DNA of 32,000 bases. Origin: Bdellovibrionales bacterium. Its GTDB lineage: Bacteria > Bdellovibrionota > Bdellovibrionia > Bdellovibrionales > UBA1609. Shown piece after piece: positions 688-16,890 of the stretch (the stretch's first letter is position 1; every line of letters starts with the position of its first letter). Where the stretch lies: positions 390,001 through 422,000 of the forward strand of contig OZ252021.1 in assembly GCA_965247685.1 (NCBI GenBank), written 5' to 3'. The position numbers were made by a program, and so were the translations under genes. The notes under the pieces are model-generated. The model worked only from the letters and a program-made list of their open reading frames with translations. It ran no database searches and had not been told where the DNA came from.

Positions 688-1830
688 ATGAATAAAAACA
701 AACAAACAGGTCGTTTTATTCCGAAATTGAATGGAGACAGCTATGAAGCTTTTATCCCAAACCCTCTTCCTCTTTCTGCTCCTTTTCGAATGGAACAGTT
801 TTATACATTGCTTGAGAAAGCAAACACATCTCTAGGAAGACTAGATGGAATTACAACGGTTCTTCCAAGTTTTAGAAGATTATCTAATATATTTATGAAA
901 AAGGAAGCCACTCTTTCTTCTAAGATAGAAGGTACACAATCAACTTTATCTGACTTTTTAATTTTTGAAACAAAAGAAGATCAAACAAAATCAGAAGATA
1001 ACATAGAAATTCAAAACTATATTTTAGCTATGGAACATGGTTTGCATAAAATAACAAAACTACCTGTGTCTCGTAGACTGATTTGTGAAATTCATAAAAT
1101 ACTTCTTTCAAGTGGTCGAGGAAGTGATAAAACTCCTGGCGAGTTTCGTAAAACACAAAATTGGATAGGGGGATCTCGCCCAGAAAACGCTATTTTTATC
1201 CCACCACCCCCTGAAAACCTTGATGAATGTTTTAGTGATTTTGAGAAATTTTTAAATAATAAAAACGTGCAAATGCCCACTCTTATCAAAGTTGCTTTAG
1301 CACACGTTCAGTTTGAAACTCTACACCCTTTTTCGGATGGAAACGGAAGAGTAGGAAGACTTCTAATTACTTTCATGCTTTGTTTAAGTGGTCTTTTAAA
1401 AGAACCTTTATTATATCTCAGTTTATATTTTCATAAGCATAGAACAGAGTATTACAATCTACTACAATCTGTTAGAGAAAAAGGAGATTGGGAAGCTTGG
1501 GTTCATTTCTTTCTGACAGGGATTATAGAAACTGCTAAACAAATTCAAGATACATCTCATCAAATTATTAATACATTCAAAGAAGATGAAAAAAGAATAA
1601 AGGGTGAGTGTACGGCTGGGGTTATTAAGGCCTATGGTTGTTTTAAAACATATCCTATTGCTTCGGTTAAAAAAGTGCAGGAAGAATCTTCCTCATCCTA
1701 TCAAACTACTTTAAAATCGTTAAAAACTTTGGAAAAACTTGGATTAGTTAAAGAAATAACAGGTCGACATCATAACAAAATTTTTATTTATAAGAGTTAC
1801 ATAAACATCCTTGAAAGAGGACTCAATTAA
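688..1830 (+). CDS. Fic/DOC family protein (probable AMP-transferase), class II with an N-terminal inhibitory motif
   Basis: The Fic active-site motif HPFSDGNGRVGR (consensus HxFx[D/E]GNGRxxR) is at nt 1324-1359, starting at aa 213. The inhibitory motif [S/T]xxxE[G/N] appears as SSKIEG at aa 77-82 (nt 916-933). The C-terminal ~70 aa look winged-helix-like. A GAGGGTG RBS lies upstream. Confidence 0.9.
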   Translation: MNKNKQTGRFIPKLNGDSYEAFIPNPLPLSAPFRMEQFYTLLEKANTSLGRLDGITTVLPSFRRLSNIFMKKEATLSSKIEGTQSTLSDFLIFETKEDQTKSEDNIEIQNYILAMEHGLHKITKLPVSRRLICEIHKILLSSGRGSDKTPGEFRKTQNWIGGSRPENAIFIPPPPENLDECFSDFEKFLNNKNVQMPTLIKVALAHVQFETLHPFSDGNGRVGRLLITFMLCLSGLLKEPLLYLSLYFHKHRTEYYNLLQSVREKGDWEAWVHFFLTGIIETAKQIQDTSHQIINTFKEDEKRIKGECTAGVIKAYGCFKTYPIASVKKVQEESSSSYQTTLKSLKTLEKLGLVKEITGRHHNKIFIYKSYINILERGLN

Positions 1831-1896: not shown

Positions 1897-3078
1897 TTAT
1901 TTTTGGATTTTAAATTGACTGGCTAATCTTTGTGCTTCTGCAATTTGATCCTTCGTCATTTGATTCTTTAGTGTATTCAACAATTGATCTATCGCCTTTT
2001 TAGGTTCGTTTTTCCGAACCCGAGCTTTACTTAAAATCAACCACTTATAAGCTTGAATATAATTCTTCACTACCCCTTCACCAGAGTAATACATCAAACT
2101 AAGATCATTTTGAGCACTTGCAACTCCTTGCTCTGCTGACTTTTTATACCAATAAAACGCTTGCTTATAATTCTTTGTTACTCCTTCACCTTTGTAGTAC
2201 ATCGAACCAAGGACATATTGAGCATCCGCATATCCTTGCTGGGCTGACTTCTCAAACCAATAAACAGCTTTCTTATAATTCTTTACTACTCCTTCACCTT
2301 TGTAATACATCACACCAAGGATAAATTGAGCTATCGCATAACCTTGCTGGGCTGACTTCTCAAGCCAATAAACCGCTTTCTTATAACTCTTTGTTACTCC
2401 TACACCTCTCATATACATCCCACCAAGTCTATTTTGAGCATTTACATGTCCTTGCTGGGCCGATTTTTCAAACCAATAAAACGCTTGCTTATAATTCTTT
2501 ACTACTCCTTCACCTTTTATATACATCTCACCAAGATTATTTTGAGCCTTCGAAACTCCTTGCTGGGCTGACTTTTCATACCAATAGATTGCTTTCTTAT
2601 AATTCTTTGTTACTCCTACACCTCTCATATACATAAAACCAAGGTTATGTTGAGCGAGTGCATCTCCTTGCAGGGCTGACTTCTCATACCAGTAAAACGC
2701 TTTCTTATAATTCTTCACTACTCCTTTACCTTGCTCATACATCAAACTAAGATTAAATTGAGCTTTCGCATCTCCTTGCTGGGCTGACTTTTCAAACCAA
2801 TAAAACGCTTGCTTATAATTCTTTGTTACTCCTTCACCGTTGTAATACATCAAACCAAGTATAGCTTGAGCCTGTACATCTCCTTGCTGGGCTGACTTTT
2901 CATACCAGTAAAAAGCTTTTTTATAATTCTTTTTTTCTCCTTTACCGTAGTAATACATCACACCAAGGTTATATTGAGCTTCCGCATCTCTTTGCTGGGC
3001 TAATTTTTTAATAAGCTCATTTTGAGCAAGTGAAAAACTTTGAAATATTAATAAAAAGATTATGATTAATTTTTTCAT
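1897..3078 (-). CDS. Secreted Sel1-like (SLR/TPR-family) repeat protein, about 9 repeats
   Basis: The signal peptide is MKKLIIIFLLIFQSFSLAQ. It is followed by tandem ~36-aa units of the form A..WYEKSAQQGDA.AQ.NLG.MY..GEGV.KNYKKA, the Sel1 signature. An AAGGAG RBS precedes the ATG. Confidence 0.9.
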   Translation of the reverse strand: MKKLIIIFLLIFQSFSLAQNELIKKLAQQRDAEAQYNLGVMYYYGKGEKKNYKKAFYWYEKSAQQGDVQAQAILGLMYYNGEGVTKNYKQAFYWFEKSAQQGDAKAQFNLSLMYEQGKGVVKNYKKAFYWYEKSALQGDALAQHNLGFMYMRGVGVTKNYKKAIYWYEKSAQQGVSKAQNNLGEMYIKGEGVVKNYKQAFYWFEKSAQQGHVNAQNRLGGMYMRGVGVTKSYKKAVYWLEKSAQQGYAIAQFILGVMYYKGEGVVKNYKKAVYWFEKSAQQGYADAQYVLGSMYYKGEGVTKNYKQAFYWYKKSAEQGVASAQNDLSLMYYSGEGVVKNYIQAYKWLILSKARVRKNEPKKAIDQLLNTLKNQMTKDQIAEAQRLASQFKIQK

Positions 3079-3493: not shown

Positions 3494-3883
3494 ATGAATC
3501 CAACTCTTGTTTTATTTGATGGTCATTGTAATCTTTGCAACCGATTTATTAATTTCCTAATCAGAAAAGGTAAAGGAAAATTTTATTTCTCAACTTTACA
3601 AGGAGAAATCTCTCAAAAATATTTGAACAAAGAAGAAATAAGAAACTTAACAAACGTGGTCCTCATAAGAAACAACAAGATTCATAAAAAATCCTCTGCA
3701 ATACTCTACATCTTTTTGGAATTAGGGTTTCCTTACTCTTTATTTTTTACTTTTATTCTAATCCCTGCTTTTATGAGAAATTTTTGTTATAATATTCTTT
3801 CAAAGAATAGATATTCATGGTTTGGAAGACGAGAAATTTTGCGGATTCCTAATCCAGAAGAAAAAGAGTTTTTTCTAGATTGA
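3494..3883 (+). CDS. DCC-family thiol-disulfide oxidoreductase (DUF393)
   Basis: The N-terminal sequence LVLFDGHCNLCNRFINFL matches the DGxCxLC motif typical of DUF393/DCC1 proteins. The size (129 aa) fits the family. Confidence 0.7.
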   Translation: MNPTLVLFDGHCNLCNRFINFLIRKGKGKFYFSTLQGEISQKYLNKEEIRNLTNVVLIRNNKIHKKSSAILYIFLELGFPYSLFFTFILIPAFMRNFCYNILSKNRYSWFGRREILRIPNPEEKEFFLD

Positions 3884-4132
3884 ATGCAAAGAATAGCTCC
3901 TATGGCGTGCTATTCATTGGTTGAAATGGGTTACAAAAAGGTACAAACACTAGTGTTTATCTTCAACATAAAAGACTATAAAGGCATCTCTAATGTTAAT
4001 TTAGAATTGGAGAACAGCCCATTGGGGCATGTTTTAGTATGTCCGATTTATAGACAAAGAACATTAGAAGATGAAAGATTTAATTCAAAAAAACCTCCTA
4101 TAATACACAAAAAGAACCCTTCGTTGTGTTAA
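3884..4132 (+). CDS. Hypothetical 82-aa protein (doubtful)
   Basis: The ATG directly abuts the TGA of the upstream DCC gene. There is no recognisable motif and no clear RBS. Confidence 0.2.
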   Translation: MQRIAPMACYSLVEMGYKKVQTLVFIFNIKDYKGISNVNLELENSPLGHVLVCPIYRQRTLEDERFNSKKPPIIHKKNPSLC

Positions 4133-4442: not shown

Positions 4443-4462
4443 CCCGAGTTAACTCGGGTTTT
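4443..4462 (+). terminator. Intrinsic terminator-like hairpin
   Basis: The palindrome cccgagttaactcggg (4443-4458) is followed by TTTT (4459-4462). Two 11-bp direct repeats tataggagcaa (4416-4426 and 4430-4440) lie just upstream. Confidence 0.45.
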
Positions 4463-4673
4463 GCACTTTCTAGGAGTCTTTTTCATCTTTAAATCTGATA
4501 TCTATGTAGCGTATATTGATGGCTTTAATTTGTTTTACCAAATTAAAACATTTTGTAAAGCAGAAAAAACAAATCTCAAATGGTTAGATATTAAACAATT
4601 CATTCTTAAAAATGTAGAAACAGAAAAACTAGAAAATTTCAAAGATCTAATTAAACAGGAAATACAATTATGA
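4461..4673 (+). pseudogene. Truncated N-terminal fragment of an NYN-domain (PIN-like RNase) gene
   Basis: VAYIDGFNLFYQ...LKWLDIKQF resembles the (V/I)DGFNLYY...KWLDL N-terminus of bacterial NYN-domain proteins. The ORF is only 70 aa and has no ATG. Its TTG start sits inside the T-tract of the preceding terminator. Confidence 0.4.
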
Positions 4674-4689
4674 ATATGGTGAATGTTAG

Positions 4690-7600
4690 ATGATTCAGTT
4701 TACCCCGCATGGTCCAAATATACCTGAAGAAGTTGTAATGGCTCTTAACAATGATAAATTAGTGTTGTTTTGTGGAGCTGGTATTTCAAAGGAACACGGG
4801 TTACCAACGTTTAAAGAATTAGTTAAGAAAGTATGTAAAGAATTATCTATAAATATAGATGGCCATCCTCTTTTAAAGGCATCTAAGGATAAGGAAGATT
4901 ATGATCAAATATTAGATTTAATTGAGGGACAACAAGAATTCTCAGTGAAACCAGAAATCTTAAGACAAAAGATTATCAGTATTTTACAATGTGATACAAA
5001 GTCTGTTGTTCATAAATATGATCAAAATTCTATTGTTCATAAATCTCTTTTGGATCTATCTGCCTTAACAGGTAATAGGGGACATAGGCTGGTAACGACA
5101 AATTTTGATGAGCTGTTTTTTAAGGCAGGATTGACTCGTAATCAAGTAGATTCAGCTCTAAAACTTATACTTTCTAAAAAAGAGGATTGGAATAATTTAA
5201 CATTTTTACATGGGGTTATTGATGAAGAAAATGATCCTGATGGAAAGCACCTTATTCTTACTAAAACAGATTTTGGTAAAGCCTATTTACATGACAAATG
5301 GGCAACTAATTTTATTATTCGTCTTTTTCAAGATTTTAAAGTATTATTTATTGGATATAGTGTAAATGATCCTATAATGCATTATCTTATTTCTGCTATT
5401 AATCATGAAAAGAAAATGAAAGAAGATAGCGGATTAGATTATTCAGCATATGCTTTTGTTGGATATAAAGATGATTCCTCAAAGGAATTAAAAGAAAAAA
5501 AGTGGTTATCAATGGGAATTCAACCAATACCTTATCGGATAGAGATAAGTGCAGACAACAAAGAATACAAGAATCACTCTATGTTATATAACACTATAAA
5601 GGAATGGGCTGATTTAAAGAAGAAAGGTTTTGAAGGATCAAAAAATTGGCTAAAGAAACAATTACGACATCCTTATAGTGACCTGGATAAAGAAAAAGCA
5701 GCTTCTGTAATTTCTTTTTTAAAAACAGATGAAAAATTAACAAAGTATTTTCCACAAATAGATCCTCCTGTTGATATAAGCTGGTTAATACCATTTACTA
5801 ATAATTCTTTAGAAAATCACAAACAAGATCAGGATTATTCAATGCCTCACAATCTAACTGATAAAACAAGATATCCTCAACTTGTGCAACCACTTTGGAG
5901 CTCTTTATCTCCAATAGAAAAATGTATGGTAAAGTGGCGTTGTTATCATTTAGATAAAGAACAATTAATTCAATGGGTTATAAATAATGGCTGTATGTTA
6001 CATCCATATTTTAAACAGCACATTCAATGGGAGATTACAGATAGAGAAAAAAGCACTAATAAAAGATTAAATCCATCTTTAAGTAAAGAAGTGTTATTAT
6101 TTTGGAAAACTGTTTCAAATCAAAATTATCCTCCACATGATCAAAATAATATGTTTGATTTAGTGGAAAGTTTGAACAAAAAATACTGTTCAATTAAAGC
6201 AAATAAATTTATAGGATCATTAAAACCATACATTAGTTTCATGATCTCTGCTAAGTCTCCTCTATATGCTAAGTCTCCTCTATATAATCCAAAACTAAAA
6301 TTGAATATAAATAACCATCTACGAACGTCACTAACTAATGAGAACACCCTTTTAGCACATGCTGAAGATTTTTCTAATCTATTAAAAAAAACAATGGAGT
6401 TAGCAACACTATTTGAAATTATTCAAAATGGAAAGGATACATTTTACAGAGATAGACCTTCTATTGAGAAACATAAACAAAATAATAATCTCTACTCTTG
6501 GACATATTTAATTGATTTAGTACAGGATAGTTTTGATCTAGCTATGAAGAAAGATAAAAAACTAGCTCAGTTTCTATTAGAAAAATGGAAACTTTATCCT
6601 TATTCAATCTTTCATCGATTGATTCTTTATGCTGTCACGAAATATTCTGATTTAGACGAGATAAAAGTTATTGAGTTGTTTCAAAATACTCAAGTTCTAT
6701 GGTCAATAACTTGTAGGAACGAAGTATTTAAATATTTAAAAAAACGAAATCATTCAGAAGAATCTACTAAAAAGTTACTCAAGTTAATTAAACAAGGTCC
6801 TTCTCGATCTCTATTTAACTCAAGTGTTAGTGATGAAAATTTCAATAAATTAAAAGAGATAGAGATTTACTATAGACTAAACAGGTTAAAGAAGTCAGGA
6901 GCTACGTTACCCAAAGCAATAGAAAAATATATCAATAAAATTCAATCAGAGTATCATTTGTCTTCATCGACAGAAGACCGAGATGATTTTCCTGTTTATC
7001 ATACGGGAATTAGAAAAGTCGGTAGTGAAAAGAAGTATCACAATTTAACAGCCCAACAAGTATATAAGGATTTAAAAAGCCTCACAGAAGATGCTCCTCA
7101 ATATAAAAAAGATGATAAACAAGAAAACTTTCGCATGTTAGTTAAAGATCATCCAGAGAAATCTTTTAAAGTACTATTACTTTTTCAAGATGATGATATA
7201 GAAAGTGCCCCTTATTGGGGAACTTTTCTCAGTGCAATTGTTATGATTAGTGATATGGAGATAAAAAAGAAATATTTCTTTGAAGCTTTAGAAAAAGTAG
7301 AAAATTTTAATGATACTGTCTTGAAGAGTATTCTTTGGTCACTCATATTTAGTTTTGATCTATGGGCTGTTGCTATTTATTTAAAAGATAAAAACAATTT
7401 TTATAAATGGTGGAATAAACTATGGAAGTTGAGTCTAGATGAGGATGTTAATCAAACTTCTTGGAATGGGAGTGATATTCCATTTAAAGCCATCAATTCT
7501 AATTTAGGAAAATTATCGAAATCTATAATGAGTATTTTATGGAATCAAGTTATAGAAAACAACAAAATTCCAAAAGATGGAAAGATACCTAACAATATAA

Positions 7601-8487
7601 AAGATTATTTGGAGATTATCATCAAAGATAGTACGCAACGTGATCCATCTGTGTTTTATCATTTTGGTTCGGATTTATCAGCTCTTTGGTTTTTAGATAA
7701 AGAATGGTCAATAAAACACCTAAAACCTTTGATGGACTGGAATAAGAAGAAAGTAATATATAAATCTCTATGGATGGGATTTTTGGATCATATGCGAGTG
7801 AGTCCAGAATTTTTATCGGATTTTAAAGATGATTTTTATCAGCTTCTACGTAATGGAAAAAAGCATATACAAGATCGTAGTTCATGTATTGCCGAAGTCT
7901 TTCTTATTACATCTGGATGTAAATGGTATAAAAGTATATTTGAAGAGAGAGAAGAACAAACTCTTAAACAGAAGACTATTGATGTTGAACTTTTAGAGTC
8001 TATTTCAGAAAAAATATATGAATTATTAGAAGACGCAGAGAGTAACTCTAATAATTTATGGTCTGAAAAGATTAAACCTTGGATAGAAAAATTTTGGCCT
8101 TATCAAACGAATATGCAGAGTCATACAACAGCTTCTAACTTATCCCTTCTAGTTTTGTATTGTGGTGATAAAATACCAGAAGCTTGTAATCTTTTAAAAG
8201 AGAAAATCAAAGGGCATATTGAAGTAAGTCCTTCAGGTATAGTAGATTCAGAATGTAGAAACATAGTTTATCATGTAGATAAATATGGGAAGACAAAATT
8301 AAAATATATCTTTGACTATCCTGAAGAACTTCTATGTCTATTAATTTGGAATTTTCCGGAACAGAAAATAGATCATATAGATCGTAAATCTCTAAGAAAA
8401 ATCTTAGGTGAAATAGAAAGAACTTCTTCTGAATTGGATTTGAAAAACAATGAAAATTATAGTGAACTTAGAGCTAAGTTATCTTGA
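4690..8487 (+). CDS. SIR2_2-domain protein, 1265 aa, with a large unassigned C-terminal region (DSR-like candidate NADase defence protein)
   Basis: N-terminal ~270 aa: LVLFCGAGISKEHGLPTF (Rossmann GAGxS, aa 29-33), LVTTNFDELF (Asn138), LTFLHGVID (His174) and VLFIGYSVNDP. These are the conserved blocks of the SIR2_2 family (ThsA, DSR1/DSR2). The remaining ~950 aa show no motif I recognise. Confidence 0.75.
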   Translation: MIQFTPHGPNIPEEVVMALNNDKLVLFCGAGISKEHGLPTFKELVKKVCKELSINIDGHPLLKASKDKEDYDQILDLIEGQQEFSVKPEILRQKIISILQCDTKSVVHKYDQNSIVHKSLLDLSALTGNRGHRLVTTNFDELFFKAGLTRNQVDSALKLILSKKEDWNNLTFLHGVIDEENDPDGKHLILTKTDFGKAYLHDKWATNFIIRLFQDFKVLFIGYSVNDPIMHYLISAINHEKKMKEDSGLDYSAYAFVGYKDDSSKELKEKKWLSMGIQPIPYRIEISADNKEYKNHSMLYNTIKEWADLKKKGFEGSKNWLKKQLRHPYSDLDKEKAASVISFLKTDEKLTKYFPQIDPPVDISWLIPFTNNSLENHKQDQDYSMPHNLTDKTRYPQLVQPLWSSLSPIEKCMVKWRCYHLDKEQLIQWVINNGCMLHPYFKQHIQWEITDREKSTNKRLNPSLSKEVLLFWKTVSNQNYPPHDQNNMFDLVESLNKKYCSIKANKFIGSLKPYISFMISAKSPLYAKSPLYNPKLKLNINNHLRTSLTNENTLLAHAEDFSNLLKKTMELATLFEIIQNGKDTFYRDRPSIEKHKQNNNLYSWTYLIDLVQDSFDLAMKKDKKLAQFLLEKWKLYPYSIFHRLILYAVTKYSDLDEIKVIELFQNTQVLWSITCRNEVFKYLKKRNHSEESTKKLLKLIKQGPSRSLFNSSVSDENFNKLKEIEIYYRLNRLKKSGATLPKAIEKYINKIQSEYHLSSSTEDRDDFPVYHTGIRKVGSEKKYHNLTAQQVYKDLKSLTEDAPQYKKDDKQENFRMLVKDHPEKSFKVLLLFQDDDIESAPYWGTFLSAIVMISDMEIKKKYFFEALEKVENFNDTVLKSILWSLIFSFDLWAVAIYLKDKNNFYKWWNKLWKLSLDEDVNQTSWNGSDIPFKAINSNLGKLSKSIMSILWNQVIENNKIPKDGKIPNNIKDYLEIIIKDSTQRDPSVFYHFGSDLSALWFLDKEWSIKHLKPLMDWNKKKVIYKSLWMGFLDHMRVSPEFLSDFKDDFYQLLRNGKKHIQDRSSCIAEVFLITSGCKWYKSIFEEREEQTLKQKTIDVELLESISEKIYELLEDAESNSNNLWSEKIKPWIEKFWPYQTNMQSHTTASNLSLLVLYCGDKIPEACNLLKEKIKGHIEVSPSGIVDSECRNIVYHVDKYGKTKLKYIFDYPEELLCLLIWNFPEQKIDHIDRKSLRKILGEIERTSSELDLKNNENYSELRAKLS

Positions 8488-8647: not shown

Positions 8648-8674
8648 GGAGAACGAAAGTTCTCCCTTTTTTTT
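8648..8674. terminator. Bidirectional intrinsic terminator between the convergent SIR2 and COG2865 genes
   Basis: The stem ggagaac (8648-8654) / gttctcc (8659-8665) has a GAAA loop. It is preceded by AAAAA and followed by a T8 run, so it has the form of a terminator on both strands. Confidence 0.7.
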
Positions 8675-8718
8675 AACTACTCTAAATGAGATTTACCATA
8701 AGGAACATTGATTAGTAT

Positions 8719-8959
8719 AAAGTGGCAGTATAAAGCTACTAAAGTGGCAGTATAAAGCTACCAAAGTGGCAGTATAAAGCTACCAAAGTGGCAGTATAAA
8801 ACTACTAAAATACAGTATAAAGCTATCAAAGTGGCAGTATAAAGCTATCAAAGTGGCAGTATAAAGCTACTAAAGTGGCAGTATAAAGCTACCAAAGTGG
8901 CAGTATAAAGCTACCAAAGTGGCAGTATAAAGCTACCAAAGTGGCAGTATAAAACTACT
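8719..8959. repeat. Tandem array of 11 x 22-bp direct repeats (iteron-like), no spacers
   Basis: The unit is aaagtggcagtataaagctacY. Units start at 8719, 8741, 8763, 8785, 8807 (21 bp, degenerate: aaaatacag...), 8828, 8850, 8872, 8894, 8916 and 8938. Variation is limited to the last 3-6 positions (ctact/ctacc/ctatc/aaactact). The last unit overlaps the stop codon of the 8958-10418 gene. Confidence 0.95.
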
Positions 8960-10418
8960 ACTTTATAGATTCTTTTAATACCTTATATCTCTCAGTAATT
9001 TTGTATTTCCCAGTTTTCTTTGAGCCTTCAAATGATACGAGTTTATTTTCTTTTAAAGTAATTATGTTTCTATCTAAAGTTCTTAAGGGCATATTGTACT
9101 TTTTAGAGAAAAACAGTCTGGAAAAATTATTATTTTCTATATGATGTAATATCTGTAACAGTTCATTTATTTTTATTTCTTTTTTCACAGCAAGGATTTC
9201 ACTTAGCTTCTTCGTGAGATTCTCCATAGCTACTACCTCAGGTGCTTTAATAATATGTCCTCCTGGAAGGGGTTTTCTATAAAATATTAGTGTTGTAAAT
9301 TTAGTAAATTCAAAATTGATAGGTTTCAGTCCTGCTTTTGCGACTAAATTTTTCATTTTCTTTATTCCTGTTCCCATTTTTTCAATATATCCTGCTCTTA
9401 ACATAAGCTGAGCAATAAGTGGATTTCTAGCAGAACTTCTCTTCCCAAGTTCTGATATCTTTAAATCCTTTGGAAGTGCTCCAAAATTATATATTTCTAC
9501 TCTATCATCGAAAATTTCAACTGTCACAGATATACCTTTCTCTAAATACTTTCTATGAGTTACGGCGTTGATTAAAGCTTCTCGTAATGCATCTTCTGGT
9601 ATTTCTAAAATCTCTTCTCTATACAACTGTCCTTTAGGAAGGACATATTCTAAGCGCAAGTGTTTTTTTAAAAAATCTACTGAATCTTCAACGTTATTGA
9701 TTATATCCTTGTTGAATATTTTTCTATCAATCACATGAATTTTTTCTGTTCCCTTAAAAAGAGCACAAGATACTGCTGCTTGTGGAAAAATACTTTCTAA
9801 ATTTTTAGAGAAAAATAAAACTCCTGTATTATTAAAAACAATTTTTGAGCCTTCTCTTTTTGCAATACTGAGATTTTCTAATAGTTGAATATAGTTGCTT
9901 CTACTGTATTGTACTTCACTTCTATCCATAAAATAAAATAACTTTTCTTTATCAAAATCTTTTTTGAAATTAAATTTTTTACAAATAACTTCATCAAATT
10001 TTAGACGATCTTCAGTTTCTAAAAATTCTATAATCTCATCTCGACTAAGTTTTTTTGAAGACGCTCCATCCCGCACATAGAAACCTGAAGAACATTTATG
10101 AGGTTTATTATCACTTTCTTGAACTTTAACTATTAAAACTTTTTCTTTTTTTATTTCCTGGAGTGAAATGGACAAGTTGGGATCACAATTATTAGCAATG
10201 TCCTTTATTTGACTTTTTAATCTGTTTGTAATATTATTTGCATCTTTTACTTCACCATCATCTGTAATACCAATGTAAATTTGCCCGCCAGAAGCATTGG
10301 CGAAAGCAACCATTTCTTTACCAAGATTGCTATATACTTGTTCCTTGAATTCAGTTTTATAGTCCTCCCCTTTTTTAAGGATAGATTCAAGGTCTCGCGA
10401 AGAAGTAAACTTTGCCAT
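8958..10418 (-). CDS. AlbA_2 (Schlafen-like, 'divergent AAA') + HATPase_c_4 + C-terminal wHTH protein (COG2865 family putative regulator)
   Basis: The N-terminus, ...GEDYKTEFKEQV...EMVAFANASGGQIYIGITDDGEV, matches the AlbA_2 signature. The central REALINAVTHRKY...VEIFDDRVEIYNFG matches the HATPase_c_4 block. The C-terminal ~80 aa are HTH-like. Confidence 0.75.
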   Translation of the reverse strand: MAKFTSSRDLESILKKGEDYKTEFKEQVYSNLGKEMVAFANASGGQIYIGITDDGEVKDANNITNRLKSQIKDIANNCDPNLSISLQEIKKEKVLIVKVQESDNKPHKCSSGFYVRDGASSKKLSRDEIIEFLETEDRLKFDEVICKKFNFKKDFDKEKLFYFMDRSEVQYSRSNYIQLLENLSIAKREGSKIVFNNTGVLFFSKNLESIFPQAAVSCALFKGTEKIHVIDRKIFNKDIINNVEDSVDFLKKHLRLEYVLPKGQLYREEILEIPEDALREALINAVTHRKYLEKGISVTVEIFDDRVEIYNFGALPKDLKISELGKRSSARNPLIAQLMLRAGYIEKMGTGIKKMKNLVAKAGLKPINFEFTKFTTLIFYRKPLPGGHIIKAPEVVAMENLTKKLSEILAVKKEIKINELLQILHHIENNNFSRLFFSKKYNMPLRTLDRNIITLKENKLVSFEGSKKTGKYKITERYKVLKESIK

Positions 10419-10426
10419 TTATATAC

Positions 10427-10666
10427 TTAGTGTTCTTTGTCTTTTATAGAAATAGGATCATTGCCATGTGAATCTTTAGAACGAAATCTCCCAGGTATAC
10501 CATGGGTTATCAATTCTGTATGTGCTTTTTTAGCAATACTCTTACCAGCTTGTTCTGCTAATTTTTGAGTATTATGCGTCGATACCACTTCACCACATTG
10601 TGTAACTTTCCATTTTCTTCCACTACCCTTATTAAGGGATACATGAATTGGTTTCTTTCTTAGCAT
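10427..10666 (-). CDS. DUF2188 family small protein
   Basis: ...GRKWKVTQCGEVVSTHNTQKLAEQAGKSIAKKAHTELITHGIPGRFRSKDSHGNDP matches the DUF2188 pattern (W.V...G......T..EA...A...A.....EL.IHG.DG.I....S.GNDP). The gene ends 8 nt upstream of the COG2865 gene, so they are probably co-transcribed. Confidence 0.7.
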   Translation of the reverse strand: MLRKKPIHVSLNKGSGRKWKVTQCGEVVSTHNTQKLAEQAGKSIAKKAHTELITHGIPGRFRSKDSHGNDPISIKDKEH

Positions 10667-10690
10667 TATTTTTCCTTATTTAAGGGCATA

Positions 10691-10718
10691 AGTATATGAC
10701 TTTTAAATACGAAATCAA
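10691..10718 (-). promoter_or_regulatory. Sigma70-like promoter for the DUF2188-COG2865 operon
   Basis: On the minus strand: TTGATT (10718-10713), a 16-nt spacer, then TATACT (10696-10691). This lies about 25 nt upstream of the ATG at 10666, with an AAGGA RBS. Confidence 0.4.
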
Positions 10719-10832
10719 GAAATATAATAGAAAAAGATACTACCGATGGAAAGTTTTTTTGTGAGAACTTATCTCCTTATTTTTACTTTCTATCAAAAAA
10801 ATCTCCCTACTACTAAGGTGAACAAATTTATA

Positions 10833-10862
10833 TTGACAACATAATGCGTTAAAAACTAGTAT
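10833..10862 (+). promoter_or_regulatory. Sigma70-like promoter for the 484-aa gene
   Basis: TTGACA (10833-10838), an 18-nt spacer, then TAGTAT (10857-10862). An AGGAG RBS sits 7 nt before the ATG at 10949. AT-rich DNA produces many such matches by chance. Confidence 0.35.
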
Positions 10863-10948
10863 AACATATTGATTTCACTGAATATTTTTTTATACTAAAT
10901 TAGTATATAGTAATTGTTTTAACTATAAATATAGGAGAATGACATTTT

Positions 10949-12403
10949 ATGAAACGATCTATCTCTAACAACGAAAAGATTGTAAAAATTTTAAAACAAA
11001 AAGGCCCATTACTTTCAGATGAAATTATACAAAAACTCTGTTCCAAACACAATCTAACAAAAGGAGCTGCCATAAAAGCTTTATCTAGAGCATCTGATCC
11101 TATTAAAAAAATAGATAAGATTAGATTACGAAGTCAAAAATTCTTTTACCTAAATAAATTAGATTATGAAGTAAAAAATACACTATATAAATACTGCAAT
11201 AAATATAATACTGCTGAGGGACTTATTTTAAATGCATTAATGACTCGAGATGGAATATGTTTAGCAAAGTATCTTCCTATTATCTCAGGGCTTCCTGTTG
11301 ACAAAATTAGTAAACAAAAACCCTTTAAAGATGTACTTTCAGGCTTAGAAGAAATTGATATGATACAGAAGCACAAAGATGAAGATTTTTCAGAAGACTT
11401 TTATTATTTATTTAACAAAAAAAACAGTAATTATTCAAAATCAAAATTTTTTCTTTTATTAGAAGATAAAATTTTGGAACAATTAAAAATTTTATTTATA
11501 AAATTGAATTTCACTTCTACAAACAAGGTTAAAATTCGATGTGAAAATGATATTCCTAATTATGGAAGTTTTAACTGGAGTTTAGTTGGCCCATGTTATC
11601 TGGATGGAATTATGGTAGGAAAGAACCCTGGATTTCTTTGTTGTGATATTTTTTTAGGAGGAAGATTGAACACAGACAATATAAAACCTATTTTAAGAAA
11701 ATATAAAACTTCTAAGTTTCAGAAAAGAAATACGAGAATGATACCAGCTATTTTTTTTCAAAGTATGACGAAACCTCTGCTGAATGAATTGAGAGGAAAA
11801 GGGTTTCTGACTATTTCGACAAAAACATTTGGAGGAGATGAATTATTAAAGTGTTTAGAAGAATTAGTTAGATTATATACTAAAATACATAGGAGAGATA
11901 TAGGTCAAGAAACTAGTAAAATTATAAAAAAATATTTTGATCTCAAATTTGGTAAAGATAACAATATTAAAGGTTATTTATTTAATTTTATTGCAAAGAG
12001 CATATTTGATCTTCAATACACAAACGTTGAAATGAGCAAGAAAATCCAATATAACAATCAACCAAAAGAAATAGATGTTTACTTTGAGGATGAATATTTT
12101 CGATATATCGTAGAGTGTAAAGCATGGGCTAACTTCAAAAATAAAGAGACTGAAATTGAAGATTGGCTAGAGAACAAATATACATTTTTTAAAAAATGGA
12201 ATAATGATAACAACCCACAAAAAGAATTAAAAATTTATTTCATCGTATCCCTGAAAAATTCAGAAGAAATAAGTAAAATAAGTAAAAAGTTCAAGGATTA
12301 CCATTTAGTAACATTTTATGATCAAACATTTTTATATGACATTGCAAATGATTACAATCAAACAGAAACAAAGTCTGCTTTAAGATATTTCTTAGACACA
12401 TAG
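10949..12403 (+). CDS. Hypothetical protein with an N-terminal HTH-like region and a C-terminal PD-(D/E)xK (Mrr/restriction-endonuclease-like) motif
   Basis: KGYLFNFIAKSIFDLQYTNV...KEIDVYFEDEYFRYIVECKAW (D376, E389, K391; nt 12074-12121) has the helix - D - hydrophobic strand - ExK layout of Mrr_cat-type nucleases. The N-terminal ~60 aa (IVKILKQKGPLLSDEIIQKL...) look wHTH-like. Confidence 0.45.
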   Translation: MKRSISNNEKIVKILKQKGPLLSDEIIQKLCSKHNLTKGAAIKALSRASDPIKKIDKIRLRSQKFFYLNKLDYEVKNTLYKYCNKYNTAEGLILNALMTRDGICLAKYLPIISGLPVDKISKQKPFKDVLSGLEEIDMIQKHKDEDFSEDFYYLFNKKNSNYSKSKFFLLLEDKILEQLKILFIKLNFTSTNKVKIRCENDIPNYGSFNWSLVGPCYLDGIMVGKNPGFLCCDIFLGGRLNTDNIKPILRKYKTSKFQKRNTRMIPAIFFQSMTKPLLNELRGKGFLTISTKTFGGDELLKCLEELVRLYTKIHRRDIGQETSKIIKKYFDLKFGKDNNIKGYLFNFIAKSIFDLQYTNVEMSKKIQYNNQPKEIDVYFEDEYFRYIVECKAWANFKNKETEIEDWLENKYTFFKKWNNDNNPQKELKIYFIVSLKNSEEISKISKKFKDYHLVTFYDQTFLYDIANDYNQTETKSALRYFLDT

Positions 12404-12856: not shown

Positions 12857-14794
12857 TTATTTTTGGATTTTAAATTGACTGGCTAATCTTTGTGCTTCTG
12901 TAATTTGATCCTTTGTCATTCGATTCTCTAGTGTATTCAACAGTTGATTTATCGCCTTTTTAGGTTCGTTTTTCCGAACCCGAGCTTTACTTAAAATCAA
13001 CCACTTATAAGCTTGAATATCATTCTTCACTACTCCTTTGCCGTAGTGATACATCAAAACAAGGTTAAGTTGAGCAGGCGCATTTTCTTGCTGGGCTGAC
13101 TTCTCATACCAGTAAAACGCTTTCTTATAATTCTTTTTTATTCCTTCACCGTTGTAATACATCGAACCAAGATTATTTTGAGCTCTCGCATCTCCTTGCT
13201 GGGCTGACTTCTCATACCAATAAAAAGATTTTTTATAATTCTTTTCTACTCCTTCACCTTGCTCATACATTAAACCAAGTTCATATTGAGCTTCCGCATG
13301 CCCTTGCTGAGCTGACTTTTCAAACCAATAAAACGCTTGCTTATAATTCTTTGTTACTCCTTCACCTTTGTAATACATTAAACCAAGGTCAAATTGAGCA
13401 CCCACATATCCTTGCTGGGCTGACTTTTCATACCAGTAAAACGCTTTCTTATAATTCTTTGTTACTCCGTCACCTTGCTCATACATGAAACCAAGGTTAT
13501 TTTGAGCACCCGCATATCCTTGTTGGGCTGACTTTTCAAACCAATAAAACGCTTTTTTATAGTCCTTTTTTACTCCTTCACCTTTGTAATACATCAAACC
13601 AAGTTCAAATTGAGCTTCCGTATATCCTTGCTGGGATGACTTTTCATACCAATAAAACGCTTGCTTATAATTCTTTGTTACTCCTTCACCTCCCGCATAC
13701 ATCACACCAAGGTTATATTGAGCGAGCGTATATCCTTGCTGTGCTGACTTTTCATACCAATAAAGAGCCTGTTTATAATTCTTTGTTACTCCTTCACCAG
13801 AGTAATACATCGAACCAAGGTTATTTTGAGCACCCACATATCCTTGCTGGGCTGACTTTTCAAACCAATAGATTGCTTGCTTATAATTCTTTGTTACTCC
13901 TTCACCAGAGTAATACATCCTACCAAGGTTATCTTGAGCGAGCGCTTCTCCTTGCTGGGCTGACTTTTCAAACCAATAGATTGCTTGCTTATAATTCTTT
14001 GTTACTCCTTCACCTTTCTTATACATCATACCAAGGTTATTTTGAGCTATCTCTTGTCCTTGCTGGGCTGCCTTTTTATACAAATTAAATGCTTTTTTAT
14101 AGTCCTTTTTTACTCCTTCACCTCTATAATACATCACACCAAGGTTATATTGAGCTTCCGCTTGTCCTTGCTGGGCTGACTTTTCAAACCAATAAAGAAC
14201 CTTTTTATAATTCTTTGTTACTCCTTCACCAGAGTAATACATCGAACCAAGGTTATATTGAGCTCTCGCATATCCTTGCTGGGCTGACTTTTCATACCAA
14301 TAAAACGCTTGCTTATAATTCTTTTTTATTCCTTCACCTCCCGCATACATCAAACCAAGGTTATATTGAGCTTCCGCATCTCCTTGCTGGGCTGACTTTT
14401 CATTCCAATAAAACGCTTTCTTATAATTCCTTACTACTCCTTCACCTTTCTTATACATCAAACTAAGATTATTTTGAGCACTCGCATCTCCTTGCTGGGC
14501 TGACTTTTCAAGCCAATAGATTGCTTTCTTATAATTCTTTGTTACTCCTTCACCAGAGTAATACATCACACCAAGGCTAAATTGAGCGCCCGCAGTTCCT
14601 TGCTGGGCTGACTTCTCAAGCCAATAAAACGCTTTCTTATAATTCTTCGTTACTCCTTCACCGTTGTAATACATCAAACCAAGTTTAAATTGAGCTGCCG
14701 CATTTCCTTGCTGGGCTAACTTTTCAGTGGGCTTATATTGAGCAAGTGAAAAACTTTGAAATATTAATAAAAAGATTATGATTAATTTTTTCAT
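12857..14794 (-). CDS. Secreted Sel1-like repeat protein, about 16 repeats
   Basis: The signal peptide MKKLIIIFLLIFQSFSLAQ is the same as in the other two paralogs, and the C-terminal tail (...IQAYKWLILSKARVRKNEPKKAINQLLNTLENRMTKDQITEAQRLASQFKIQK) is near-identical to that of paralog 1 and related to that of paralog 3. I place the start at the ATG at 14794 (paralog-consistent), not at the TTG at 14854 given by the ORF track. Confidence 0.9.
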   Translation of the reverse strand: MKKLIIIFLLIFQSFSLAQYKPTEKLAQQGNAAAQFKLGLMYYNGEGVTKNYKKAFYWLEKSAQQGTAGAQFSLGVMYYSGEGVTKNYKKAIYWLEKSAQQGDASAQNNLSLMYKKGEGVVRNYKKAFYWNEKSAQQGDAEAQYNLGLMYAGGEGIKKNYKQAFYWYEKSAQQGYARAQYNLGSMYYSGEGVTKNYKKVLYWFEKSAQQGQAEAQYNLGVMYYRGEGVKKDYKKAFNLYKKAAQQGQEIAQNNLGMMYKKGEGVTKNYKQAIYWFEKSAQQGEALAQDNLGRMYYSGEGVTKNYKQAIYWFEKSAQQGYVGAQNNLGSMYYSGEGVTKNYKQALYWYEKSAQQGYTLAQYNLGVMYAGGEGVTKNYKQAFYWYEKSSQQGYTEAQFELGLMYYKGEGVKKDYKKAFYWFEKSAQQGYAGAQNNLGFMYEQGDGVTKNYKKAFYWYEKSAQQGYVGAQFDLGLMYYKGEGVTKNYKQAFYWFEKSAQQGHAEAQYELGLMYEQGEGVEKNYKKSFYWYEKSAQQGDARAQNNLGSMYYNGEGIKKNYKKAFYWYEKSAQQENAPAQLNLVLMYHYGKGVVKNDIQAYKWLILSKARVRKNEPKKAINQLLNTLENRMTKDQITEAQRLASQFKIQK

Positions 14795-15050
14795 ACTAAG
14801 TTTTATCTTAAAATAAATGTTACTTATAATATGTTTTATATTTAAAAATACCAATCTTTTCTCTTTTTATAAAACTCTGAGTCAATTTTTCTATCTTAGT
14901 AAATATAACAACTATTTTTCCCTTACTATTTCTTATATTAAAACCAGATCAAAGCCTACTAGATTTACCTTCAATAGTCAATATACCCTAAGGAAAGAAG
15001 AAAAAAATTAAATATACTTGTACAAGAATCTACGACGGAAAATAATAATT
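14795..15050. repeat. Sel1 cassette 5'-flank repeat (partner 16626-16890)
   Basis: About 256 bp immediately upstream of the Sel1 #2 start aligns with the region upstream of Sel1 #3. Both end in ctacgacggaaa(a/g)taat(a/c)att. There are scattered substitutions and small indels. Confidence 0.85.
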
Positions 15051-15749: not shown

Positions 15750-16625
15750 CTATAAAACAATATCTTTCTTTGTGGATTTTATAAATTGCCTGATCAATCT
15801 TTGTGCTTCCGCAATTTGATTCTTTGTCATTTGATTCTCTAGTGTATTCAACAATTGATTTATCGCTTCTTTAGATTCGTGTTTCCGAATTTTACCTAAA
15901 ATCAACCATTTATAAGCTTGAATATAATTCTTTTTCACTCCTCTTCCCATGAAATACATCACACCAATAGTAAATTGAGCATATATATGTCCTAGCTGTG
16001 CTGACTTCTTAAGCCAATAAAAAGCCTGTTTGTAATTCTTTACTACTCCTACACCGTTGTAATACATTTCACCAAGAGTAAATTGAGCCTTCGAAACTCC
16101 TTGCTGGGCTGACTTCTTATACCAATAAAACGCTTGCTTATAATTCTTTACTAAGCCTTCACCTCTATAATGCATCAAACCAAGTTTAAATTGAGCATCT
16201 GCATATCCTTGCTGGGCTGACTTTTTATACCAATCAAAAGCCTGTTTGTAACTCTTTACCACTCCTCCTTTTCCATATTGATACATCCAACCAAGATTAT
16301 ATTGAGCTTCCGTATTTCCCTGCTGTGCTGATTTTTCAAACCAATAGATTGCTTTCTCATAATTCCTTACTACTCCTTTTCCATCGTAATACCTGTCACC
16401 AAGTATATTTTGAGCTCTCGCATATCCTTGCTGGGCTGACTTTTCATACCAATCAAAAGCTTTCTTATAATCCCTTACTACTCCTCCTTCACCTTTCTCA
16501 TGCATCATACCAAGGTTAAGTTGAGCCTTTGCATCTCCTTGCTGGGCTAATTTTTTAATAAGCTCATTTTGAGCAAGTGAAAAACTTTGAAATATTAATA
16601 AAAAGATTATGATTAATTTTTTCAT
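15750..16625 (-). CDS. Secreted Sel1-like repeat protein, about 6 repeats
   Basis: It has the same signal peptide, MKKLIIIFLLIFQSFSLAQNELIKKLAQQGDA. The Sel1 units are more diverged (some with a GG insertion), and the tail is related (IQAYKWLILGK...QMTKNQIAEAQRL). The start is taken at the paralog-consistent ATG at 16625. Confidence 0.9.
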   Translation of the reverse strand: MKKLIIIFLLIFQSFSLAQNELIKKLAQQGDAKAQLNLGMMHEKGEGGVVRDYKKAFDWYEKSAQQGYARAQNILGDRYYDGKGVVRNYEKAIYWFEKSAQQGNTEAQYNLGWMYQYGKGGVVKSYKQAFDWYKKSAQQGYADAQFKLGLMHYRGEGLVKNYKQAFYWYKKSAQQGVSKAQFTLGEMYYNGVGVVKNYKQAFYWLKKSAQLGHIYAQFTIGVMYFMGRGVKKNYIQAYKWLILGKIRKHESKEAINQLLNTLENQMTKNQIAEAQRLIRQFIKSTKKDIVL

Positions 16626-16890
16626 ACTAAGTTTTATCTTAAAATAAATGTTACTCATAATTACTTACAATATGTTTTATATTTAAAAATACCGACCTTT
16701 TCTCTTTTTATAAAACTCTGATTCAATTCTTTCTGTCCTAACAAATATAACAACTGTTTTTTTTTACTATTTATTATAGTAATACCTAGGTCAAGTTTAC
16801 TAGATTTACCTTAAATAGTCAATATATTCTAAGGAAAGAAGAAAAAATTAAATGTACTTGTACGAGAACCTACGACGGAAAGTAATCATT
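16626..16890. repeat. Sel1 cassette 5'-flank repeat (partner 14795-15050)
   Basis: See 14795-15050. This copy continues directly into the 3'-flank repeat with no DUF805 insert. Confidence 0.85.

Follow-up and report, generated by a model that had tools for sequence, protein, structure and literature searches.

A tandem array associated with a prokaryotic Schlafen gene and its winged helix in a Bdellovibrionales defence island

The window analysed here is a stretch of 32,000 nucleotides from a Bdellovibrionales bacterium (assembly GCA_965247685.1, contig OZ252021.1, positions 390,001 to 422,000 of the forward strand; positions below are counted from its first letter), in which a tandem array of 22-bp units lies at the 3' end of the gene of a 486-aa protein, this gene being preceded by a small DUF2188 gene and faced divergently by the gene of a 484-aa protein. 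The original prediction had joined these components into a possible multi-gene defence or regulatory system, and the features that it had described (open reading frames, domains, gap, spacer, promoter-like hexamers and the residues D376, E389 and K391 of the 484-aa protein) were all confirmed in the sequence. The region is read here as probably two independent defence-island units, with the array supplying the 486-aa protein, a prokaryotic Schlafen, with the cognate DNA sites of its winged helix. The genes, the array and the domains of the Schlafen protein are the following:

8958 to 10418, minus strand: gene of the 486-aa protein, a prokaryotic Schlafen of the HisKinase-HTH class, COG2865 type
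8719 to 8958, no strand assigned: 22-bp tandem array, 11.0 copies, 92% matches
10344 to 10367, minus strand: Schlafen catalytic motif E18-x4-E23-x-K25 (GEDYKTEFK), from the sequence and alignment invariance
9300 to 9533, minus strand: HATPase_c_4 domain (GHKL, histidine-kinase-like ATPase), residues 296-373, from Pfam and Foldseek
8970 to 9179, minus strand: C-terminal winged helix, residues ~414-483, from the topology of the AlphaFold2 (AF2) model and HTH_45 (0.055)
9054 to 9095, minus strand: predicted recognition-helix segment NMPLRTLDRNIITL, residues 442-455, from AF2 and the prediction of array units
10427 to 10666, minus strand: DUF2188 gene, 79 aa, from Pfam, PADLOC and PHROGs matches
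10949 to 12403, plus strand: gene of the 484-aa protein, with N-terminal winged helices, a conserved central domain and a C-terminal PD-(D/E)xK nuclease domain

The Schlafen gene and its tandem arrays

The 486-aa protein was matched by Pfam SLFN_AlbA_2 (PF04326) over residues 18-124 (1.3e-22; 81 bits against a cut-off of 25.3 bits) and by HATPase_c_4 (PF13749) over residues 296-373 (2.7e-19), with a weak match of HTH_45 at the C-terminus (0.055), a family that is recorded for several homologues. The AF2 model (pLDDT 84.5) has a helix-helix-helix-strand-strand topology at residues 414-474 (pLDDT 83-94), and it was related by Foldseek to 3LMM, a COG2865 structure (6e-21), to the N-domains of SLFN5/11/12/13/14 (probability 1.0), and to the catalytic (histidine-kinase CA) domains of HK853, VanS and PDK. 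The residues E18, E23, F24 and K25 are invariant in three homologue alignments, and the motif E18-DYKT-E23-F-K25 is invariant in 36 homologues. In the classification of 5,930 prokaryotic Schlafens (pSlfn) by Perez Taboada et al. (Nat Microbiol 2026; PMC13056530), the catalytic motif was given as Ex4(E/D)xK, and the commonest fusions were HisKinase (34%) and HisKinase-HTH (19.2%). The window's protein shares with the latter class PF04326 together with Ex4(E/D)xK, the HisKinase-like ATPase, the C-terminal helix-turn-helix (HTH) and the location in a defence island; all four features of architecture and motif being present, it is a prokaryotic Schlafen of the HisKinase-HTH class. Its Schlafen domain would be, by homology, an effector cleaving RNA or tRNA, and since the Ex4ExK motif is intact, the protein is probably an RNase effector and not merely a regulator; the earlier view of it as a sensor or regulator only is at odds with the intact E18, E23 and K25. 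Neither tandem arrays nor a DUF2188 partner were found described in PMC13056530.

The unit of the window's array is composed of AAAGTGGCAGTAT and AAAGCTACC on the plus strand. Its core GTGGCAGTATAAA occurs in 10 exact copies within 8719-8958 and, with up to two mismatches allowed, in 11 matches over the window against 0.79 expected, the eleventh lying outside the array with 2 mismatches; the last 22-bp unit overlaps the stop codon of the 486-aa gene. Among the close homologues, which come from "Bdellovibrionales bacterium" metagenome-assembled genomes and are 53-70% identical, a tandem array lies 0-40 bp from the stop codon, or overlaps it, in all 14 that have an intact 3' end (the window counted), with periods of 11-13 or 22-25 bp and 3 to 52 copies. 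The arrays are in the sense orientation in the 13 others and inverted only in the window, where the strand reading TAAA..GGCAG is antisense to the gene; despite this inversion its units are homogeneous, and it adjoins the stop codon in the same way as the others. The units differ between paralogues (among them are TAAATGGCGGAG, TAAATGTCGGTC, ATAAATTGTCAGG, TAAAGTTCGGAA, AAATTGCGGAGT and AAGTGGCAGTA), and a homologue truncated at about residue 390, before the winged helix-turn-helix (wHTH), has no array (locus L015, 1859-3037).

More distant genes were collected by a metagenome scan, in which a 3-sequence alignment gave no matches, its peptide patterns being too specific, and a 12-sequence alignment yielded 80 loci of 38-55% identity. 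An array is present between codon 300 and stop+100 in 55 of the 61 complete genes, against 0.10 expected from flanking DNA. Nearly all of these arrays are of 12 bp and in frame at residues ~375-400, where they encode the linker just before the winged helix, with post-stop arrays in two loci (L059 and L099); the in-frame type was found also on plasmids of cultured Aliarcobacter, Arcobacter and Runella. In a Firmicutes group (~30% identity), an 11-bp array AAAAGTGACCG of 3.5-4.3 copies lies directly upstream of the predicted -35 element and, in locus L027, over the predicted -35/-10 elements. The tie between the array and the 486-aa gene that had been suspected from the window is thus borne out by the 14 close homologues and the 55 metagenome genes, and the array belongs to the Schlafen gene. 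No description of such arrays was found in the literature on Schlafen, COG2865-type and related-domain proteins.

Several further observations were made at the Schlafen loci. The short homologues P0171, P0180, P0204, P0213, P0220, P0222 and P0226 (~390-413 aa) end where the wHTH cassette would begin; L015, without wHTH or array, belongs with this set. Composite arrays, with unit types of other paralogues, are present in L122 (5465-5680), L020 (5570-5590) and L017 (5350-5630); that of L122 mixes TGGCGGTC, GTGGCAGTA and GTTCGGAAT, that of L020 ends with one window-type unit GTGGCAGTATAAAG, and such arrays may represent cross-talk between paralogous Schlafens in one genome. L122 has, besides, a 9-bp array TTGAACGAT of ~12 copies upstream of its Schlafen gene (3700-3810), which is in fact coding DNA: on the opposite strand it specifies the N-terminal repeat (QSFNRSIV)n of a 530-aa ORF. 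In L121 (5880-6000), the array and a terminator are followed by a second Schlafen promoter and the first ~25 codons, which break off beside an insertion sequence (rve). On the plasmids of L124 and L127 (Aliarcobacter and Arcobacter), the Schlafen gene is part of a type I restriction-modification operon; it has a KAP NTPase or DUF87 gene on one side and hsdR on the other, and the stop and start codons overlap.

Array units, the winged helix and alternative readings

The array units follow the recognition helix and not the Schlafen/ATPase part of the protein. When the first 385 residues were compared separately from the last ~100, L011 and L020 proved to be 70% identical in the former and 97% in the latter and to have the same array; L010 and L012 (92% and 36%), as well as L013 and L014 (88% and 37%), have different arrays. 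A Mantel test on 10 loci gave p 0.08. Over 59 non-redundant loci, the 7-mer similarity of the arrays was correlated with C-terminal identity (Spearman 0.40; partial 0.39 given the N-terminal part), and the partial correlation with N-terminal identity given the C-terminal part was 0.02. The best predictor of array similarity was the 14-residue recognition-helix segment (residues 442-455; Spearman 0.43), which kept a partial correlation of 0.33 once the N-terminus and the remainder of the C-terminus were controlled for (permutation p 0.001).

The same pairs of helix and unit core recur across lineages: DGVK[YF] with ACTACCC, R[TS][VI]E with TCGG, RT[LI][ED]R with TGGCGG, ATA[EKQ]RD with AAATGA, RGIEWN with ACTGTGG, KGVEWN with ACTAGGG, and STTAI[DE]K with GTTGG, while TVKG[VI]EW is paired with AAACTAGGG both in metagenome loci and on an Aliarcobacter plasmid. 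When only pairs with dissimilar N-terminal parts are considered, the mean array similarity to the locus of closest helix is 0.28, as against 0.038 in the background; in one case, that of L075, L079 and L069 against the plasmid locus L124, the arrays are identical though the N-terminal parts can scarcely be aligned (N score 0.17). The proteins of L124 and L127 are near-identical over the first ~370 residues (88% over the full 447) and diverge from the array onward, helix and unit being swapped as a pair: helix TVKGIEWQ with unit AAACTAGGGTAA in WP_263515085.1 (Aliarcobacter cryaerophilus pCNAC48), and helix STTAIEKH with unit AAAAGTTGGGTG in WWW13108.1 (Arcobacter sp. p121_Kiel_2759).

Such discordance of N- and C-terminal similarity, with its breakpoint at the array or linker position, could be taken to mean that the arrays are recombination junctions for swapping C-terminal wHTH cassettes between paralogues, and not binding sites, as could the presence of several paralogues per genome (three in OZ242172.1) and the foreign unit types in the composite arrays of L122, L020 and L017. 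This explanation is very unlikely, since the arrays of paralogues usually share no 7-mers and would therefore be poor recombination substrates, since no array stands at the N/C breakpoint (~residue 385) in the window's clade, and since the Firmicutes promoter arrays and the helix-unit correspondence would be left unexplained.

The constraint on the arrays is on nucleic acid and not on peptide. The periods of non-coding arrays (11, 13, 22, 23 and 25) are not multiples of three, and the 12-mer AAATGGCGGAGT, common to L103 and L010, and AAAGTTCGG.AT, common to L054 and L013, are each in frame in one lineage and post-stop in the other. The linker peptides of the in-frame arrays are unrelated (VNEG, EKTV, KTPG, TTQK, NFSV, ENVP), their A-run is placed in two codon phases (24 vs 18 arrays), and the unit variants within them are 75 nonsynonymous and 19 synonymous, which is about the neutral expectation. 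After rotation to the best-fit register, all 34 distinct 12-mers have an A-run followed by a variable GC-rich core, a regularity that is partly by construction because the rotation was chosen for best fit.

These data bear also on the reading of the arrays as functionless, slippage-prone linker DNA that hitch-hikes with the wHTH segment, the post-stop and promoter arrays being rearranged remnants. Most arrays are indeed in-frame linkers of unconstrained peptide sequence, the copy number varies from 3 to 52, and physical linkage alone predicts some co-inheritance. However, non-coding arrays have been kept in all 14 close homologues, with units that are diversified yet internally homogeneous; there are three array positions in three lineages; identical helix-unit pairs are met in loci whose N-terminal parts can barely be aligned (those of N score 0.17); the design of A-tract and GC-core is shared by 34 of 34 distinct units across two reading frames; and the array was lost together with the wHTH in L015. 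The absence of any function is, accordingly, improbable.

As for the type of nucleic acid, the balance is tipped towards DNA rather than RNA, because the array of the window has stayed well kept despite its inversion, the Firmicutes arrays are placed upstream of predicted promoter elements or over them, and RNA folding is inconsistent. The sense-strand array RNAs range from z +1.7 to z -5.9; in the window, the plus-strand array RNA (8700-8960) has z = -4.7 against shuffled sequences, because its quasi-palindromic units can form G-U pairs, and the minus strand, which is the sense of the gene, has z = -1.5. An array acting as RNA would form part of the Schlafen transcript and be a target for binding or cleavage by the RNase or the wHTH, in the manner of type III toxin-antitoxin (TA) systems or as mRNA autoregulation, and the sense orientation in 13 of the 14 close homologues, the position inside the ORF in ~90% of the distant ones, an effector that is an RNase homologue, and the folding of the window's plus strand (-4.7), of L014 (-5.9) and of L035 (-3.7) would all suit this. 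Such a role is nevertheless given a low probability, for in the window the array runs inverted to its gene, the Firmicutes arrays, placed ahead of the predicted -35, are probably untranscribed, 4 of 7 sense arrays are unstructured (z 0 to +1.7), the 11-12-nt units are far shorter than ToxI-type units, and the units co-vary with the recognition helix of a winged helix, typically a reader of double-stranded DNA. A per-unit hairpin on the minus strand (CTGCCA-CTT-TGGTAG) was considered as a functional element and rejected, as it is broken in 5 of 11 window units with no compensating change and is absent from the 12-bp units of the relatives. Rfam gave no match to the array, its only result being a sub-threshold MicX (19.9 vs 75 bits) outside it. 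A sigma-54 promoter reading of TGGCAG-N-GC within the unit was likewise discarded, the spacing being wrong and the GC element absent from the relatives.

The neighbouring genes

The remaining features of the locus lie between and around the genes named above:

10718 to 10691, minus strand: promoter-like TTGATT-16-TATACT, 5' of the DUF2188 gene, a consensus match only
10833 to 10896, plus strand: two promoter-like sites, TTGACA-18-TAGTAT and TTGATT-16-TATACT, 5' of the 484-aa gene, consensus matches only
8648 to 8675, both strands: GC-rich hairpin with T-runs on both strands, between the 3' end of the Dsr1 gene and the array
4690 to 8487, plus strand: Dsr1 (SIR2-like) gene, 1265 aa, convergent with the Schlafen operon, from PADLOC and SIR2_2
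12068 to 12121, plus strand: nuclease motif E374-I-D376 ... E389-C-K391 of the 484-aa protein, from invariance in 46 members and alignment to AF1548

The divergent spacer between the 79-aa and the 484-aa genes is of 282 bp (10667-10948), and the TTGATT-16-TATACT hexamer pair that precedes the DUF2188 gene is present also on the plus strand at 10869-10896, facing the 484-aa gene. The hairpin at 8648-8675, scored as a plus-strand terminator by prediction and judged by eye on the minus strand, is likely a bidirectional terminator, in which case the minus-strand Schlafen transcript would cross the array.

The 79-aa protein is matched by Pfam DUF2188 (1.6e-9), by the phage family phrog_3220 (1.6e-10) and by both PADLOC PDC-S16 models (7.5e-17 and 1.6e-16); PDC-S16 is not known to protect against phage. 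In the literature DUF2188 is associated with defence operons and named among putative effectors of Thoeris islands, with no function assigned. Its gene ends 8 nt (10419-10426) before the start of the 486-aa gene, and the operon-like arrangement that had been proposed for the two is supported; DUF2188 stands directly 5' of a close Schlafen homologue also in L007/L009, L008 and L011, with gaps of 3-6 nt. These pairs amount to 3 or 4 other places, all in the same clade, with a truncated remnant in L012; DUF2188 is absent beside the three closest Schlafen homologues (67-70% identity), from the clade's other loci and from all 80 metagenome loci, and is an occasional, lineage-restricted accessory of the Schlafen gene. 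In OZ242172.1, the DUF2188 copies of L009 and L011 (both at 3752-3991) differ at 2 of 79 residues and share the upstream gene, with Schlafen cores behind them that are ~70% identical. Evolution has been mosaic here, the breakpoint falling between the DUF2188 and Schlafen genes, so that DUF2188 with its promoter behaves as a movable cassette. In L001 (13098-14446), DUF2188 lies directly 5' of a TIR_2 gene, 3.6 kb from a homologue of the 484-aa protein, so that it appears to pair with different effectors; the family of PADLOC PDC-S16/DUF2188 is thus Schlafen-coupled in the window and TIR-adjacent in L001.

The 484-aa protein has no match in Pfam, NCBIfam, PADLOC (v2) or PHROGs, and its C-terminus was placed by profile and structure searches only. 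A word-indexed search gave 9 relatives; the profile search, over 1.84 billion representatives, gave 730 clusters at E <= 0.001, of which 300 were at E <= 1e-30, with full-length matches of ~480-530 aa in nearly every case. D376, E389 and K391 are near-invariant in 10 close homologues, and R47, D233, K251, D376, E389 and K391 are invariant across 46 family members, down to ~20% identity. The family profile matched AF1548 (1y88) at E 1e-4 at the EIDV...IECK motif and, more weakly, a DUF1887 protein, Can2 and Cdn1. With the AF2 model (pLDDT 75), Foldseek related the C-terminus to Card1, Cdn1, Nt.BspD6I, R.BspD6I, AF1548, NucS and XisH (probability 0.9-1.0, and 0.98-1.0 for Card1, Cdn1, BspD6I and AF1548) as well as to Can2, and the N-terminus to winged helices of the MecI/BlaI type, while weak matches to NERD, Mrr_cat, Card1_endonuc and CARF_PDDEXK were recorded for the relatives. 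The PD-(D/E)xK fold of the C-terminus and the wider wHTH plus PD-(D/E)xK, Mrr-like reading of the protein, both put forward originally, stand on the invariant motif, the 1y88 match and the Foldseek results. Mrr_cat (PF04471) itself did not match the window's protein and matched only 4 of the 46 relatives, weakly (best 8e-5), and no Shedu match (DUF4263 in Pfam, PADLOC models) was found in the protein or the 46 relatives. With the AF1548/NERD/Mrr/Card1-Can2 group the protein shares the ExD...ExK motif and the fold; it differs in having winged helices and a central domain, with no CARF or Mrr N-domain, and no curated family spans its full length. The central domain (residues 187-300) has a strand-strand-helix-strand-helix-strand layout, with low model confidence at residues 200-223. 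The invariant D233 and K251 belong to it, and it could serve in ligand binding or as a further nuclease-like domain.

The original proposal of a single multi-gene defence system, made up of the DUF2188 protein, the COG2865 protein as sensor or regulator, the 484-aa protein as effector and the array, is favoured by the adjacent divergent genes with their shared 282-bp control region, by the defence-island setting, and by the winged helices present in both large proteins. The neighbourhoods are against it. The 7 other loci with homologues of the 484-aa gene (L001-L006 and L123) are all defence-island-like, with AAA_15 ATPases, methyltransferases, GmrSD, a reverse transcriptase, TIR/ThsB, caspase, hsdS and Lamassu LmuB as neighbours, and none of the 7 has a Schlafen or DUF2188 gene beside the homologue, or a tandem array with it; conversely, no homologue of the 484-aa gene was found in the ~110 Schlafen loci examined. 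The absence of co-occurrence refutes the one-system idea for the 484-aa gene. Besides, the closest Schlafen homologues (67-70% identity) are without either partner, and the 486-aa protein has an intact effector motif of its own, so that a single system of all four components is extremely unlikely. The 484-aa gene is a stand-alone unit that moves between defence islands independently, and its product is a member of an unnamed, widespread family of candidate single-gene defence nucleases. A link of this family with TIR genes, which are near 3 of the 7 homologues, was set aside because the window lacks a TIR gene and those of L003 and L005 are paired, as units of their own, with small 8xMP-like genes. 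In these loci (L003, 9482-10574; L005, 1470-2371), the partner of the ThsB-type TIR gene is a gene of ~166-170 aa (assigned to the 8xMP family in L005), and the two look like a separate two-gene TIR unit.

The defence-island setting that had been proposed is supported by the adjoining 1265-aa Dsr1-like protein, which is matched over its full length by PADLOC Dsr1 (7.8e-143) and by Pfam SIR2_2; its NCBIfam Dsr1 score of 503 bits, under the equivalog cut-off of 1400 bits, indicates a divergent Dsr1. Directly 5' of its gene is a 70-aa ORF (4461-4673, plus strand) with a weak PADLOC HEC-09 match (1.4e-5), and a Fic-family gene at the island edge (688-1830, plus strand) has a SoFic-like match (3.9e-50) under the cut-off. 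Three Sel1-repeat genes (1897-3078, 12857-14854 and 15750-16658, all on the minus strand) flank the defence genes, their coding sequence being built of 108-bp tandem repeats in up to 15.7 copies.

Proposed mechanism and comparison with known systems

Under the reading preferred here, the first unit would be the minus-strand operon of DUF2188, the 486-aa Schlafen (RNase, HisKinase-like ATPase and winged helix) and the 22-bp array, and the second would be the stand-alone 484-aa nuclease with wHTH and PD-(D/E)xK domains. The winged helix and the tandem array probably constitute a co-inherited specificity cassette, in which the winged helix would bind the units, each an A-tract with a GC-rich core at a period of ~11-12 bp, as double-stranded DNA and in tandem. 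Such binding would dock the protein beside its own gene, inside it, or at its promoter. At a promoter the docking might serve autoregulation, in the gene body it might be a roadblock or a feedback element, and after the stop codon, as in the window, it might mean sequestration or insulation from the convergent Dsr1 transcript. In this way the dosage of a potentially toxic RNase would probably be controlled, or the RNase sequestered; that infection then in some way frees or activates it is speculation.

Several points weigh against this reading. Phage protection was conferred in E. coli by neither of the two HisKinase-type Schlafen fusions that were tried, the experimentally active pSlfn having Ig-like or DUF262 partners (PMC13056530); defence by the class is therefore putative, and we infer it here. 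The co-variation of unit and helix could partly reflect the physical linkage of the array and the wHTH-coding DNA, and L054 and L013, which share a unit, have a strict helix identity at background (0.29 vs 0.28). The promoter positions in the Firmicutes group are consensus predictions, not mapped starts. That 13 of the 14 close homologues have the array in sense, and that most arrays are in frame, would fit an mRNA-level function as well, and a post-stop binding array has no obvious route to repression of its own promoter.

A bolder form of the DNA-site reading, tentative and rather unlikely, would regard the HisKinase-HTH Schlafens as DNA-tethered immune RNases that multimerise on a private, iteron-like array in cis, the RNase being freed or activated when infection disturbs the nucleoprotein complex, be it by degradation of host DNA, by a change of topology or by a competitor. 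The helix-unit pairs would then be a readable recognition code, and composite arrays would wire paralogues into a network.

The class of the 486-aa gene is known, with bacterial Schlafens having been shown as anti-phage tRNases in 2026 (PMC13056530), and the array-winged-helix cassette was found described neither in that paper nor in the literature searched. An array that co-evolves with the winged helix of its own gene, in several phyla and on plasmids of cultured bacteria, offers a cheaply testable hypothesis on the regulation of HisKinase-HTH Schlafens, and the cassette may explain how a toxic RNase is kept silent. For annotation, caution is advisable in that the tetrapeptide "linkers" of these Schlafens may be DNA elements first and peptides second. 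The 484-aa protein, in its turn, defines a candidate defence nuclease family outside the coverage of PADLOC v2.

Three known systems invite comparison. In the type III TA systems (ToxIN, CptIN, TenpIN), an array of ~34-45-nt units lies upstream of the toxin gene in a fixed orientation, and its RNA forms pseudoknots. The Schlafen loci resemble them in having a tandem array beside an RNase gene in an anti-phage context; in contrast, the units measure 11-12 nt (22 in the window), the arrays take up varying positions, the copy in the window runs inverted, and RNA structure is inconsistent. Membership of the window's array in these systems was rejected on its downstream and inverted placement, the varying position, the discordant z-scores and the lack of an Rfam match. 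The winged helices of OmpR/PhoB bind 11-bp direct repeats, with 2-4 repeats at their target promoters. The likeness here is in direct repeats of about one helical turn, with a ~7-bp core and an A/T-rich segment that would suit a minor-groove wing, and this shared repeat design suggests head-to-tail tandem binding; the difference is that OmpR and PhoB are response regulators, whereas the Schlafen arrays have 3-52 repeats and lie in cis to their own gene. In lambda, the binding sites of the O protein (the ori-lambda iterons, of ~19 bp with internal symmetry) lie inside the O gene and encode its interdomain linker, O being a replication initiator that binds them via its N-terminal domain. Nothing at the Schlafen arrays suggests a replication origin; what the two have in common is an array of sites within the gene that encodes a linker, and the co-variation of site and DNA-binding domain among relatives, so that lambda O/ori-lambda appears, by analogy, to be the nearest precedent for sites embedded as linker-coding DNA in the gene of their own binder.

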